Positions 22,382 through 42,572 of a DNA stretch of 64,000 nt are shown one piece after another. Position numbers and translations under genes: made by a program. The stretch is taken from the sequence record PP047755; one strand, given 5' to 3'. Within the stretch, counting starts at the first letter, position 1; each line of letters opens with the position of its first letter. The stretch comes from Escherichia phage KEP1. The notes below the pieces were generated by a model. It ran no database searches. It was given only the letters and a program-made list of their open reading frames with translations, and had not been told where the DNA came from.

Positions 22382-22938
22382 TATTGTTCGGTGCAGGTGA
22401 TGAGAAGTTTGCAAAAACTATCAAGGCATCATCTACGGAAGAAGGTGCATTGACTAAACAAACTTACTATATGCGTCTGCCAAAGATTAAGAAGTTACTT
22501 GATAGCTTAGAAGCCGATTTTAAGGCGTCTAAAAAGGCTCTGGAAGAGGTTTTTGGGAAGAATTCTTCAATTGCTAAAGGTGGTTATATCAGGGTCGCTG
22601 GAGCATGGATATGGTGCAAATCTCCACATAAACTACTGAACTACCTCCTGATGAGTTCGGAAGCACAGATTCAGAATGAGGCCATCAACCTAGCAGCAAG
22701 AAAAGCCTGTGAAGATGGCCTGACAAAACTGAATGCTCGAAAACCAGCTATCGGAGCAAGGTTACTTCTGGCATATCACGATGAAAATAGTTGGGAATGT
22801 CCAGAGGGTATGACACATGATATGAAAGCAATTGCTGACTGGATGTATGGACAAGCTTCAAAAAACTTAGGTTTGAGGAAAGAAACACTTGTAACTGGTA
22901 CAGCAAAGGTTGGTAAGAGCTGGTATGAGGTACATTGA
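22382..22938 (+). CDS. DNA polymerase (family A), exon 2 / C-terminal part (motif B remainder and motif C)
   Basis: ORF track 22384-22938 starts at a TTG; LFGAGDEKFAKTI continues motif B; LLAYHDENSWECPEG matches the Pol A motif C HDE. Confidence 0.7.
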
Positions 22939-22941
22939 TTA

Positions 22942-23475
22942 ATGGATTTAATTTTACAAAAACGTTTAAAGGAGCTGCTGCACTATGACCCCGAAACAGG
23001 GGTCTTTACTTGGCTTCGTAGAGAAGGTAAATCAAGAGCTGTTAGTGTTTTTAACAGTAATTATGCAGGAAAGGTGGCAGGTAATATCCAGACTGATTCA
23101 AGTGGTCATAAACAGATTAGTATCTATTTTGACAAGAAAGCACATAAAGCACACAGACTCGCATGGCTTTACGTGTATGGCAAGATGCCAAAAGGTATCA
23201 TTGACCATATCAACGGAGACTCACTTGACAACAGGATTGTAAACTTAAGGGAAGCAGATGACTTTCAAAGTGCTTGGAATAAAGGTAAGCTAGTCACCAA
23301 TAAATCTGGGTACAAGGGTGTAAGTCTTAAGAAGAAGTCTGGTAAGTGGGTCGCACAGATAAGTTATAGAGGTAAGAAGATGTTTTTAGGTTATCATGAC
23401 ACACCTGAAGAAGCCCATAAAGCTTACTGTAAAGCTGCTGTGAAACTCCACGGAGAGTTTGCAAAACTAAGTTGA
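22942..23475 (+). CDS. HNH-type homing endonuclease with AP2-like domain (free-standing, immediately downstream of the DNA polymerase)
   Basis: 177 aa; paralogue of 12578-13102; His/Asn pattern DHINGDSLDNRIVNLRE. Confidence 0.75.
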   Translation: MDLILQKRLKELLHYDPETGVFTWLRREGKSRAVSVFNSNYAGKVAGNIQTDSSGHKQISIYFDKKAHKAHRLAWLYVYGKMPKGIIDHINGDSLDNRIVNLREADDFQSAWNKGKLVTNKSGYKGVSLKKKSGKWVAQISYRGKKMFLGYHDTPEEAHKAYCKAAVKLHGEFAKLS

Positions 23476-24714: not shown

Positions 24715-24906
24715 ATGAACAAAGAAGATAAGCATAAAAATGCTGTACGAACTCCTGATGGAAAGGTTCAATCCTTCATCCTTACAGTTGATGGAAAGCC
24801 ATTTCGTTGCCACTGCGGAGCAAACTGTTTTCATAAACCAGATAAAAATGACTTAGAGCTTTACGCATGTAATGCTTGCAATACTTGGTATCACTCAGAG
24901 GAATAA
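24715..24906 (+). CDS. hypothetical zinc-ribbon protein
   Basis: 63 aa; CHCG...CNACN cysteine pairs. Confidence 0.45.
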   Translation: MNKEDKHKNAVRTPDGKVQSFILTVDGKPFRCHCGANCFHKPDKNDLELYACNACNTWYHSEE

Positions 24907-24907
24907 A

Positions 24908-26011
24908 ATGACAACTCTATACAAACAAAATAAAGATGGCTCTTTTAACGTCTGGTCATGTGTCGCTGTAGGTGACAAAGTTATTACAACCTACGGTAAA
25001 GAAAATGGCAAGATGATGTTTGAAGAGTATACAGCAGAACCTAAAAACATCGGTAAAAAGAACGAGCGTAACGCTGAACAGCAAGCTCTCTTTGAAGTTG
25101 CTGCTAAGTATAAAAAACAAGTTGACCGCAAAGGTTATGCTTACACAAAAGAGTCTGCACAGAATACTGAGAAGGTAGGTGTACAGCTTGCTCATGATGC
25201 TGCAAAGGTTAGTCATGCAAAGTATCTGAAGTTCCCTGCTGATGCTCAACCGAAACTTGATGGTGTCCGTTGTAGGATTTCAAGGCACTTAAGTATTGGC
25301 AGTGTATTCACAGCATATTCTCGTGAAAATACTGTTTACAAAATCCCTACTGAACTAATACCTGACATTATGGCAATGTTAAGGCTCCACAAAGATGTTG
25401 ATGAATTTGATGGAGAGATTTATGCTCATGGGTGGGACTTAGAAGATATCGTCTCTATGATTAAAAATGAAGACAATCCTGACAGACACCTGCTCAAGTT
25501 TTACTGGTATGATATTTGTGACAGCACTAAGACGTGGCCTGAGCGTAGAGATATTATTGAGACTTCACCATTGAATGACTTTAGAGACGGCTGTAGAGTT
25601 GTCCCTGTTAAGTCTCGTCGTGTAAATTCTTGGGAAGAGTTTGATGAAGCTCATGATAAGTGGGTTGAAGCTAAGTTTGAAGGTGCAATGTACCGTTCAA
25701 TCTCTGAAGACTCCTTCTATGAGTGTTGTCACCGTTCATACTTCTTGATTAAGCACAAGAAGATGCACACTGAAGAGTTTAAAGTGACTGGTGTAAAGAC
25801 TGATAAGCGTGGTCATGGCAAGTTCGTTGTAGAGACTCTTCCTAACGTCTTTGTAGATGTCTCATGGAAGACTACTCATGAGAAGAAACAGTATCTTGCT
25901 GAGCATCCTGAAGAGTTTATCGGGAAGCCTCTAACGGTTCAGTTCCAGAAGATGACTCGTAAGGGTTCTTTACAGTTCCCTGTCGGGCTAGTTATTAGGG
26001 ATTATGAATAA
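24908..26011 (+). CDS. ATP-dependent DNA ligase
   Basis: Start trimmed to MTTLYK after GAGGAA RBS; adenylation motif I PKLDGVRC (KxDG); T7/T4 ligase-like length. Confidence 0.8.
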   Translation: MTTLYKQNKDGSFNVWSCVAVGDKVITTYGKENGKMMFEEYTAEPKNIGKKNERNAEQQALFEVAAKYKKQVDRKGYAYTKESAQNTEKVGVQLAHDAAKVSHAKYLKFPADAQPKLDGVRCRISRHLSIGSVFTAYSRENTVYKIPTELIPDIMAMLRLHKDVDEFDGEIYAHGWDLEDIVSMIKNEDNPDRHLLKFYWYDICDSTKTWPERRDIIETSPLNDFRDGCRVVPVKSRRVNSWEEFDEAHDKWVEAKFEGAMYRSISEDSFYECCHRSYFLIKHKKMHTEEFKVTGVKTDKRGHGKFVVETLPNVFVDVSWKTTHEKKQYLAEHPEEFIGKPLTVQFQKMTRKGSLQFPVGLVIRDYE

Positions 26012-26014
26012 ACT

Positions 26015-26161
26015 ATGTTCAGTACAGTCATTCTGTTTATACTGGTTGTCTTTGTATTGTCATACGTTGCAAGTAAGCTTTTGGACACATCTTTTGCAAT
26101 GGGTGTCTTGTTTACAATCTTTTGTTTCGTGACACATATAGCTATCAGGACTTTTATATAA
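26015..26161 (+). CDS. possible small hydrophobic membrane protein (48 aa), not in ORF track
   Basis: Manual translation MFSTVILFILVVFVLSYVASKLLDTSFAMGVLFTIFCFVTHIAIRTFI; two hydrophobic segments; starts 4 nt after the ligase stop. Confidence 0.4.
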   Translation: MFSTVILFILVVFVLSYVASKLLDTSFAMGVLFTIFCFVTHIAIRTFI

Positions 26162-26168
26162 AAAGCTG

Positions 26169-26196
26169 TTGACATAGAAAATTTGGTGAGTATACT
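26169..26196 (+). promoter_or_regulatory. Sigma70-like promoter (TTGACA - 16 nt - TATACT)
   Basis: Near-consensus -35 and -10 hexamers with 16-nt spacer. Confidence 0.55.
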
Positions 26197-26310
26197 GAGC
26201 AGCATAAACCAACAGGTACTCACCAGCATCACTTAAGAGTCTTTCTAAGAGGGTTTTTAAGTGATGTCCGGTCGGGTGAGGTAGGGTTAAGTATTGTCCG
26301 GTACGGTCGG

Positions 26311-26350
26311 GTAAAGTACGGTACGGTAAGGTAAAGTACGGTATGGTAAG
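26311..26350. repeat. 20-bp tandem direct repeat x2 within a GT-rich non-coding region
   Basis: GTAAAGTACGGTACGGTAAG followed by GTAAAGTACGGTATGGTAAG; flanked by further GGTA/CGGT-rich sequence (26270-26380, 26440-26500). Confidence 0.7.
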
Positions 26351-26549
26351 GCAAGGCTAGGTCTGGTATGGGTAGTTAGTCTCAGCTACATTAAAATGAG
26401 ACTTACCTTTTTAAAAGGTCTTTAAGAGGGTCTTTTAACAAGGCGGGGTGCGGCTCGGTCTGGTTGTGTGAGGTTCTGTTTGGCTAGGTAAGGTATGGAA
26501 GGATGGCAGTAGCCTTATAAAAAATCTGCCAAATAAGCTATAAAATCTG

Positions 26550-26578
26550 TTGACAAGTCAGGTGTTATAGCTTATTTT
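26550..26578 (+). promoter_or_regulatory. Sigma70-like promoter (TTGACA - 17 nt - TATTTT) upstream of the 26623 gene
   Basis: Consensus -35, 17-nt spacer, A/T-rich -10; shares CTGTTGACA with the 26169 promoter. Confidence 0.5.
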
Positions 26579-26622
26579 TATACTCAATGTAATACAAAAT
26601 TTAATATAACTTTGAGGTCATT

Positions 26623-27006
26623 ATGAAAAAGATTTTATTAGCTGCTGCAATGGTTATGGCAATGAATTTACCAGTCAATGCAACAGAACTTCCAAATGTG
26701 GACTTATCAGGTGTTCCAGAAGACACTTGTCAGATTGTTAAAGGTGTTGCTCTAGCTAATGGCGAGCTACTTAAACCAATCTCTGAAGAGTCTTTAACAG
26801 AGATGACTGATAAGGTAACTGACTATCAGTATCGTGTTCTTGCAGAGTATTTCCTGCAATCTGCAAATATTAAAGAGAAGCACCCTGATGATATTGATGT
26901 ACAGACTATGCTTAATCATCGTATCCAGTTTAAAGAGGATTTGATGCAAAAAGCCATGTATGGTGTTGAGTATTTCTTAGAAAACAGAAGCTGCACAGGT
27001 ATTTGA
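26623..27006 (+). CDS. Secreted/periplasmic protein with N-terminal signal peptide
   Basis: 127 aa; MKKILLAAAMVMAMNLPVNA is a typical Sec signal; directly downstream of the promoter. Confidence 0.55.
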   Translation: MKKILLAAAMVMAMNLPVNATELPNVDLSGVPEDTCQIVKGVALANGELLKPISEESLTEMTDKVTDYQYRVLAEYFLQSANIKEKHPDDIDVQTMLNHRIQFKEDLMQKAMYGVEYFLENRSCTGI

Positions 27007-27007
27007 T

Positions 27008-27220
27008 ATGGCTCTTAAAAAGTTACATCCCAGAAGCGGTTATGGTAAGATAATTGATGATACAGACGGCTTTACAGTCTTTACAGTTATCTGTCAAGAT
27101 GATTCACAGATTGAAAAGATTCTTGACGATTATCTTAACGATGAACGTGAAAAGGTTAGGGCTACAAACATAGATTCATTGATTGACACTTCACGCAAAC
27201 GGAAGAAGAAAGATGAATGA
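27008..27220 (+). CDS. hypothetical protein
   Basis: 70-aa ORF. Confidence 0.45.
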   Translation: MALKKLHPRSGYGKIIDDTDGFTVFTVICQDDSQIEKILDDYLNDEREKVRATNIDSLIDTSRKRKKKDE

Positions 27221-27512
27221 GGTTTTTGACCCTTATGCTCCACAAGATGATTGGGAGGCTGACAGAGAGGCTGAAATGGAGAGTTATATTTGTCCAATGG
27301 ATGTAGACGAAATGAGAGACTTCGTTGCACATCGTTTTAAGAGAGAGATTAAGTCCAGAGGTCTTTCTCAAGAGCAAGTTGCTAAAATTTGTGGTATCTC
27401 TCAGGCTCGTGTATCCAACATAATCCACCTCACTGGTAATGTCTCGCTTGAGTATATGTTGGAAGTATGCGAAAAATTCGGTGTTAATTTTAATTTAAGG
27501 CTGGCAGATTAA
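27183..27512 (+). CDS. Helix-turn-helix DNA-binding protein
   Basis: 109 aa; LSQEQVAKICGISQARVSNI is an HTH-like segment. Confidence 0.5.
   Translation: MTLHANGRRKMNEVFDPYAPQDDWEADREAEMESYICPMDVDEMRDFVAHRFKREIKSRGLSQEQVAKICGISQARVSNIIHLTGNVSLEYMLEVCEKFGVNFNLRLAD

Positions 27513-37187: not shown

Positions 37188-42571
<5,384 letters not shown>

Positions 42572-42572
<1 letters not shown>

Follow-up and report, generated by a model that had tools for sequence, protein, structure and literature searches.

Here, we describe the non-coding stretch at positions 26162-26622 of Escherichia phage KEP1 (sequence record PP047755), a Felix O1-like phage of the Ounavirinae. The window, meaning the whole stretch of this record that was analyzed (64 kb), supplies all coordinates given without a contig name. 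The region lies between genes for a DNA ligase and a 127-amino-acid (aa) signal-peptide protein and holds two tracts of GGYNN pentamers, each followed by a putative RNA pseudoknot. VIPR (Viral Interference Programmable Repeat) is an RNA-guided gene-silencing system related to CRISPR, described in two preprints (10.64898/2026.04.26.720920; 10.64898/2026.04.26.720927). With high confidence, we read the region as a guide array of the SUSP1 (type II) kind of VIPR, orphaned from its effector gene, vipr, with the first of its two guide RNAs (vrRNA1) aimed at a gene of a phage satellite. The element is thus of a known kind, described months earlier in a relative, and is here effector-less. A 1-kb query around the locus matched 278 GenBank phage records, nearly all from Felixounavirus and its relatives. 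The features of the locus and its neighbors are as follows.

24872-26011: DNA ligase gene, 5' neighbor of the locus
26015-26161: 48-aa membrane open reading frame (ORF), between the ligase gene and the locus
26169-26196, plus strand: P1, sigma-70-type promoter TTGACA-16-TATACT (11/12 consensus match), presumed array promoter
26227-26266, plus strand: 5' flank element A, a 10-bp inverted repeat enclosing TAAGAGGGTTTTTAA, directly 5' of the first unit
26265-26371, plus strand: vrRNA1 guide tract, 21 GGYNN units and a closing GG
26372-26403, plus strand: vrRNA1 3' tail, predicted H-type pseudoknot GTAG-tt-AGTCTCA-g-CTAC-attaaaa-TGAGACT
26405-26443, plus strand: 5' flank element B, palindrome ACCTTTTTAAAAGGT and TAAGAGGGTCTTTTAACAAGG, between the two vrRNAs
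26442-26498, plus strand: vrRNA2 guide tract, 11 GGYNN units and a closing GG
26499-26530, plus strand: vrRNA2 3' tail, predicted H-type pseudoknot AAGG-at-GGCAG-tag-CCTT-ataaaaaat-CTGCC
26531-26549 and 26559-26577, plus strand: arms of a 19-nt inverted repeat within which lies P2 (26550-26578), promoter of the downstream operon
26623-27006: 127-aa signal-peptide gene, 3' neighbor of the locus

The tracts follow a strict 5-nt period, GGY plus two free bases (NN). When an eight-unit GGT-NN template was scanned along both strands of the window, the locus scored up to 22/24 (window-wide mean, 5.5; standard deviation, 2.05), and no other site on either strand reached 17. The NN series is CC CG GA AG TA AT CC AC CG AA AC AC AA AA AC AT AA AA TA CT AT in vrRNA1 and GG GC TC CT TG GA TC TT TA AA AT in vrRNA2.

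An earlier note on this DNA had listed the promoters, a hairpin, a tandem duplication, other repeats, and a palindrome for 26162-26622; all are present, with two sets of coordinates off by one base. P1 stands as described there, as does P2 (TTGACA-17-TATTTT, 10/12 consensus match). Promoter-like sites in the 2-kb region do not exceed shuffle expectation (3 found versus 5.4 expected); both promoters are nonetheless kept in essentially every relative examined. The arms of the hairpin exist but are placed one base away from where they had been put, with ATCACTTAA at 26228 and TTAAGTGAT at 26257; as a perfect inverted repeat, the hairpin region spans 10 bp (26227-26236 / 26257-26266). The palindrome ACCTTTTTAAAAGGT is likewise real but sits at 26405-26419 rather than 26406-26420, and both copies of TAAGAGGGT were located (26246 and 26423). 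Tandem Repeats Finder recovered the 20-bp duplication (period 20, 2.7 copies, 90% matches, 26299-26351) and additionally called period 5 with 10 copies at the locus. The best account of the duplication is an invariant GGY scaffold into which an internally repetitive guide is set (AC AC AA AA / AC AT AA AA), a part that mirrors repeated codons of the target described below (T-T-K-N / T-I-K-N). The reported G/T skew was reproduced (GC skew up to +0.58), and no plausible ORF crosses the region, where the sole ORF is a 41-aa, TTG-start frame on the minus strand. No terminator-like site was found from P1 to the 127-aa gene. Rfam gave no match at the locus up to an E value of 10 (one unrelated weak match lies at 27154) and none in eight array-bearing loci, and literature searches on Felixounavirus termini, Felix O1 intergenic repeats, and pentanucleotide G-rich phage repeats turned up nothing relevant to the locus. 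The earlier note had missed the 5-nt code, the pseudoknots of the tails, and the connection with a protein family.

The syntenic region was compared in 30 relatives from IMG/VR and GenBank, among which P1, tracts, tails, and P2 are kept. Between the ligase stop and the downstream gene lie 273 to 2,132 bp, depending on the phage, and the layout is modular, with P1, one to five G/T-rich tracts, and P2; each tract has a flank element with TAAGAGGGT(C)TTTTAA on its 5' side and a conserved 32-nt tail on its 3' side, and longer versions of the locus carry extra 200-aa and 146-aa genes between tract groups. Within the tracts, GG-pyrimidine recurs every 5 nt without phase slip and the NN differ freely, even though the phage flanks are ~95% identical. 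Among 1,232 units in tail-anchored tracts, the second G is kept in 98% and the pyrimidine at the third position in ~100%, with NN free. P1 is kept within 3 mismatches 5' of the first vrRNA in relatives with and without vipr, SUSP1 included. Flank elements A and B both recur ahead of arrays in the relatives; the 3' arm of element A varies without compensating changes in contigs L006, L014, and L023, so its hairpin is unsupported by covariation.

Both window tails fit a single 32-nt H-type pseudoknot model in which a 4-bp stem 1 is interleaved with a 5- to 7-bp stem 2. Across 16 distinct tails from the relatives, pairing holds in 92.6% of cells, and 9 of the 11 pairs have changes on both sides; with one partner slid out of register, controls gave 28-39% paired. 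These tails belong to four paralogous types, so that the independent covariation events are few. At one stem position, G-U, G-C, and A-U are all found, in keeping with an RNA read off the plus strand. The vrRNA2 tail has the same 32-nt architecture as that of vrRNA1, and both of its stems covary with the GTGG/CCAC and GGTAG/CTACC variant that precedes vipr in relatives. The predicted tail pseudoknot is supported by covariation. In public annotations, parts of vrRNAs are labeled "repeat_region" (humlepung, L001:2490-2539; momo, L002:2328-2376) or "rho-independent terminator" (ASO1A, L030:1159-1203).

The link to VIPR came through similar tracts in other phages. An exact IMG/VR scan for six GGTNN units returned at least 120 contigs; besides plain microsatellites, the matches listed include many unrelated phage contigs with degenerate tracts of ~12-20 units, mostly sense-oriented and intergenic and in some cases 13 in tandem. 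ORFs were clustered over 40 array loci (39 from IMG/VR plus that of phage VpaE1), and one family of ~200-aa proteins was found in 24 of them; where loci were examined in detail, its gene lies immediately upstream of the arrays. The family takes in the 200-aa protein of Felix O1-like phages; it has no Pfam domain, and its >500 homologues are all named "hypothetical." Its profile matches PDB entry 36pp, "SUSP1 Vipr protein," with an E value of 2e-79, and the predicted Vipr structure model has a pLDDT of 95.7. Pfam and PHROGs searches of the neighboring proteins gave no functional lead except a helix-turn-helix (HTH) regulator. L066:2217-3406 is a large array, with 13 tandem vrRNAs that each end in GGTAA GGTAA GGAAT GGTTT and a 14-nt AT-rich spacer; in further large arrays from unrelated IMG/VR contigs (L052:3301-5658; L118:2251-3257; L150, reverse strand; L054; L075), the spacers are short hairpins, the tracts are staggered or overlap, or the gaps between consecutive genes are each filled by a single tract.

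As the preprints describe the system, Vipr is a minimal RAMP protein (~20 kDa), kin to Cas5/6/7 and usually accompanied by an accessory Vap, and a vrRNA consists of 9-16 YNNGG repeats and an invariable 3' tail, which is a pseudoknot in the SUSP1 clade (10.64898/2026.04.26.720920; 10.64898/2026.04.26.720927). One Vipr protomer binds per repeat with GGY sequestered, forming a helical filament, while the NN base-pair with double-stranded DNA and pass over one target base in each unit, which leads to transcriptional silencing; competing phages and satellites are silenced in this way, the skipped base of published targets is usually a codon wobble position, and 18 of the 20 SUSP1-clade guides with an identifiable natural target converge on a satellite phage (10.64898/2026.04.26.720920; 10.64898/2026.04.26.720927). 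During SUSP1 infection, four ~100-nt vrRNAs come from intergenic regions around vipr-vap1 and copurify with Vipr (10.64898/2026.04.26.720920). Such expression and copurification are reported only for SUSP1 and P. fulva (10.64898/2026.04.26.720920; 10.64898/2026.04.26.720927).

Judged by sequence homology, the region in KEP1 is securely a vrRNA array of two genes and a homologue of the VIPR locus in SUSP1, itself an Ounavirinae relative. It has 21 and 11 GGYNN pentamers in strict phase, and both tracts end in the pseudoknot tail. The order in SUSP1, VpaE1, and Moogle is ligase, P1, vrRNA(s), vipr, vap1, vrRNAs, P2, and the 127-aa gene, and the window shares the flanks, P1, the tails, and P2 with that locus. 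The promoter-driven non-coding RNA that the earlier note had offered among its candidates was right in kind: two vrRNA genes lie 3' of P1, homologous and syntenic to the sequenced SUSP1 vrRNAs.

The satellite was reached through the phage's own structural genes. Window positions 39547-42572 (minus strand; tape-measure and baseplate genes) are 84-91% identical to the best-matching E. coli genomes, and 476 of 5,426 complete E. coli genomes match this stretch at all. The matching stretch sits in ~11-kb islands flanked by serine recombinases (L153:6300-17800; L154-L158) at three or more chromosomal sites (yciI-tonB, yecN/DUF72, and ymdF-wrbA). These islands correspond to the Ounavirinae satellite targeted by VIPR in the preprint.

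Targets were sought in five E. coli chromosomal satellites and one IMG/VR satellite (L158). Read as (xNN)21 with a 1-nt skip, vrRNA1 matches 34/42 positions (81%) in a gene of the L153 satellite (L153:9721-9783) that encodes a ~185-aa hypothetical protein (WP_000999799.1 and alleles). Three other satellite alleles score 31-33/42, and the L158 satellite, found by an exact 12-unit scan, scores 37/42 (88%) at the 63-bp site 2265-2327; as background, the guide reaches at most 26/42 (62%) over 1.14 Mb of DNA from unrelated phages and 25/42 within the window. Third codon positions are the ones skipped, and vrRNA1 thus has a natural target as VIPR defines one (at least 80% NN match, wobble skip). All 21 of its NN are matched by at least one of four satellite alleles. 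By this sequence match, vrRNA1 appears to be directed at a gene of the E. coli phage satellite. Several of the differences among satellite alleles (L153:9721-9783, L155:5709, L157:5823, and L158:2265), and between the window and the homologous VpaE1 guide, are CGN/AGR arginine-codon switches at guide-contacted codons. Switches within the Arg, Leu, and Ser families are the sole synonymous changes able to evade a wobble-skipping code.

No Vipr gene is present in the five E. coli chromosomal satellite loci sampled. One of them carries a 14-unit vrRNA of its own (L154:3479-3548, minus strand); its tail, GTGG...CCAC, is pseudoknot-like, and a terminator-like hairpin comes after it. Satellite-borne vrRNAs are also reported by the preprints (10.64898/2026.04.26.720920; 10.64898/2026.04.26.720927).

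The window lacks both vipr and vap1. Searches by tblastn and two Vipr hidden Markov models (one narrow, one built from 24 diverse members) found no Vipr in the 64 kb, and the two models found none in a six-frame translation of the complete 87,179-bp genome of Salmonella phage fBSPA4, whose aligned segments mostly share 92-97% identity with the window (one segment of ~1 kb, 80%). The best E values in the window and fBSPA4 were 0.24-7.9, versus ~1e-81 for the VpaE1 and SUSP1 controls. Vap1 (phmmer, VpaE1 query) likewise had no match in the window or fBSPA4 (best E, 0.076; controls, 1e-93 to 1e-94). Neither a vipr nor a vap gene is thus adjacent to the array, and with vipr and vap1 found neither in the 64 kb of the window nor in fBSPA4, the array is an orphan; its RNA genes and its position place it in the VIPR family, but as an incomplete system. 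Humlepung and UAB_Phi87 are further vipr-less relatives. All Ounavirinae vipr matches examined sit at this one locus. In GenBank phages, the array region occurs in 230 records and vipr (at least 90% identity) in 118 Ounavirinae records; by organism name, the array region and vipr count 75 versus 17 in Salmonella phages and 114 versus 77 in Escherichia phages. Some records are broken at the repeats (warpig, momo), so these counts are approximate, and as an approximation, roughly half of the related GenBank phages are orphans; effector loss may be correlated with host genus. The published discovery began from Vipr homologues, and effector-less phage loci find no mention in the available parts of the preprints (10.64898/2026.04.26.720920; 10.64898/2026.04.26.720927); to a Vipr-based pipeline, such loci are invisible.

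By analogy with SUSP1, P1 would transcribe both vrRNAs, with transcripts probably extending toward P2 and the operon behind it. In a single infection, guides that lack Vipr could silence nothing; to act, they would need Vipr in trans, such as that of a vipr-plus relative infecting the same cell. Recombination between the repeated tails and flank elements most likely created the orphan state by deleting the vipr-vap1 cassette, and a recent deletion of this kind is the most economical reading. The array may also be a purely inert relic, may serve for freeloading or as a decoy, or may have a small effect on the downstream operon as a leader.

Among known systems, the closest is the type II VIPR locus of SUSP1 (vrRNA1, vipr, vap1, and vrRNA2-4). 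The two occupy the same slot between the DNA ligase and 127-aa signal-peptide genes, share P1, GGYNN tracts, 32-nt pseudoknot tails, flank elements, and P2, and are directed at the same class of target, the SUSP1-type satellite; the window differs in lacking vipr and vap1, in having two vrRNAs rather than four, and in the 21 units of vrRNA1. Satellite-borne vrRNAs such as that of L154 resemble it as guide genes with no vipr in the same genome, but a satellite is always co-resident with a helper phage able to supply Vipr, whereas the phage of the window is autonomous and lytic and has no obligatory partner.

Orphan CRISPR arrays, phage mini-arrays, and solitary repeats (RNA anti-CRISPRs) use an effector made elsewhere or act as decoys. 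Like orphan CRISPR arrays, the KEP1 locus has guide or repeat RNAs without a cognate effector; unlike them, it has a gapped NN code in a constant pentamer scaffold instead of repeat-spacer units, no acquisition machinery, and Vipr, not Cas, as effector. The TRAP sites of Bacillus trp leaders are (G/U)AG triplets with two free spacer nucleotides that are read by an oligomeric protein, and their likeness to the tracts, in which triplets are also spaced by two nucleotides, prompted the search for a partner protein. TRAP, however, is a closed ring used for attenuation and its spacers are uninformative, whereas in vrRNA tracts the NN are the information. As a RAMP homologue, Vipr resembles the Class 1 CRISPR RNA-Cas7 filaments, with one protomer per fixed guide length and thumb-induced base flipping, according to the preprints (10.64898/2026.04.26.720920; 10.64898/2026.04.26.720927). 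The VIPR period is 5 nt, with 3 nt sequestered and 2 pairing, versus 6 nt with 5 pairing in Cas7 filaments, and in VIPR the target is read with a 1-nt skip.

Several points weigh against reading the locus as an orphan SUSP1-type array with a satellite-directed guide. No target was found for the second guide, vrRNA2, which scored at background in the five chromosomal satellites and the IMG/VR satellite; its exact 11-unit pattern has no match in IMG/VR or GTDB species genomes, and a 9-unit pattern gave five matches, all in unrelated taxa and about the number expected by chance. With 21 units, vrRNA1 falls outside the published range of 9-16; vipr-plus relatives have guides of 17-20 units, several with good targets (e.g., 18 units at 92% NN match). 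That P1 is active and the RNAs are processed is presumed from SUSP1. About 22 kb of the genome lie outside the window, and the presumed absence of vipr from them draws on fBSPA4 and on the confinement of the examined Ounavirinae vipr matches to a single locus. The estimate of ~50% orphans comes from two BLAST counts that include some partial or broken assemblies.

Given that the array is an orphan, it may be an inert relic, i.e., the remnant of a recent effector-cassette deletion, functionless in this phage and bound to decay or be lost; we consider this rather unlikely, yet the weightiest of the alternatives. The lack of vipr and vap1 favors it, as do a vrRNA2 without target in satellites, IMG/VR, or GTDB species genomes and the identity of the vrRNA2 guide with one from vipr-plus contig L003, a hint of recent common descent. 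The apparent enrichment of orphans in Salmonella phages fits relaxed selection away from an E. coli satellite, and orphan-only guides reach at least 80% NN match in the six satellites somewhat less often (6/16) than vipr-plus guides (32/52; Fisher P = 0.15), with match rates that exceed those of shuffled guides. The integrity of GGY in orphan arrays, however, equals that in vipr-plus arrays (full GGY in 70.6% versus 75.5% of units; second G, 98%, and third-position pyrimidine, 100%, in both); orphan arrays have P1 and tails intact and no visible decay, and in the window, P1 and both pseudoknots are preserved. A dead guide also sits uneasily with a vrRNA1 that matches a satellite allele at 88% over 21 units and whose differences from its VpaE1 homologue track those between satellite alleles, and with an orphan layout that occurs in about half of the related records and has diverse guides. 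Those same intact, promoter-driven, and common arrays could speak for guides that are still used, either borrowing the Vipr of co-infectors against a shared satellite or titrating that of a competitor, much as RNA anti-CRISPRs titrate Cas proteins. Relatives with and without vipr come from the same IMG/VR metagenome sample (3300045988), and among the vipr-less satellites, one of five has its own vrRNA, so that effector-less guides already exist in the system. We regard borrowing or titration as doubtful, since the argument is wholly inferential and these observations do not separate a decoy from a relic. It is similarly doubtful that a maintained strategy is at work, in which vipr-less Felix O1-like phages keep guides that are loaded by co-infectors' Vipr or soak up a rival's Vipr as an RNA anti-VIPR; were it so, the CGN/AGR switches would be satellite escapes from a wobble-skipping code, with the guides tracking them.

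Readings that leave VIPR aside fare worse. The tracts could mainly act in cis as an untranslated leader modulating the downstream operon, as a Rho-resistant C-poor spacer, by boxA-like antitermination, through Shine-Dalgarno (SD)-like standby sites, or as a TRAP-like ring platform. For want of a terminator-like site from P1 to the 127-aa gene, P1 transcripts may read through; GGGTCTTTTAACAA is similar in sequence to rrn boxA, whose consensus is GCTCTTTAACAA; and arrays in other phages sit between co-directional genes. A leader gives no account of NN that match a foreign gene in codon register or of the tight link to a vipr gene, and the NN preferences are only weakly SD-like; as the main function it is improbable, while a secondary leader effect is possible. 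A replication origin with iteron-like repeats, which the earlier note had proposed, or an R-loop origin made of a promoter and a G-rich non-template strand, is more improbable still. A strong promoter does precede the positively skewed stretch, at a non-coding locus among DNA-metabolism genes, but the 5-nt units with two free positions are unlike 17- to 22-bp iterons, the free positions spell a satellite gene, and cumulative GC skew has no inflection at the locus. Tracts number 1 to 5 among close relatives and elsewhere reach 13 in tandem or lie scattered between genes, and the identical elements in SUSP1 are ~100-nt RNAs that copurify with Vipr (10.64898/2026.04.26.720920). For the tracts, the suggested landing pad for a regulator found no more support than did the origin, with GGY being the published Vipr-binding motif and the NN spelling a satellite gene.

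Other candidates were rejected. Records of warpig, momo, and L009 start or end at the locus, which had raised the idea of a genome terminus or pac site; these look like assembly breaks at repeats, since other records hold the locus internally, and momo starts inside vipr. A TRAP-like ring platform, boxA/boxC antitermination, a Rho rut site on the C-rich strand, two-tier G-quadruplexes, primase-site clusters, RecA/Chi-like hotspots, and a tRNA CCA-end sponge were dropped once the protein link appeared. For SD-like standby or ribosome-sponge sites, the NN preferences were too weak.

RNA-guided DNA recognition by VIPR was first described in the 2026 preprints, which propose that it predates CRISPR (10.64898/2026.04.26.720920; 10.64898/2026.04.26.720927). 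The orphan state, its frequency, and the codon-level tracking between guide and target extend that work. Should the counts be a fair guide to how common orphan arrays are, these arrays would bear on the gain and loss of VIPR loci, on guide sharing or decoy use between co-infecting phages, and on the escape of satellites from a wobble-blind code. The regions merit annotation as vrRNA genes in Felix O1-like phages, which are used in Salmonella typing and biocontrol.

Both promoters of the locus are associated with inverted repeats. At P1, a perfect 9-bp repeat, TGGTGAGTA / TACTCACCA (26184-26192 / 26217-26225), kept in relatives, overlaps the -10 element as well as the predicted transcript's first ~20 nt, and may serve as an operator. 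The 19-nt repeat at P2 is 89% complementary, brackets the -35 element, and is, like the rest of the P2 region, near-invariant in relatives; it could be an operator, with a Cro/CI-type HTH gene downstream at 27183-27512, or, as RNA, could form an AU-rich hairpin with a U-run that ends array transcripts. Elsewhere in the window, a 177-aa ORF at 22942-23475 has an HNH motif and probably encodes a homing endonuclease; most of it falls in a segment (22641-23396) that has no counterpart at that position in fBSPA4 and looks like an insertion.

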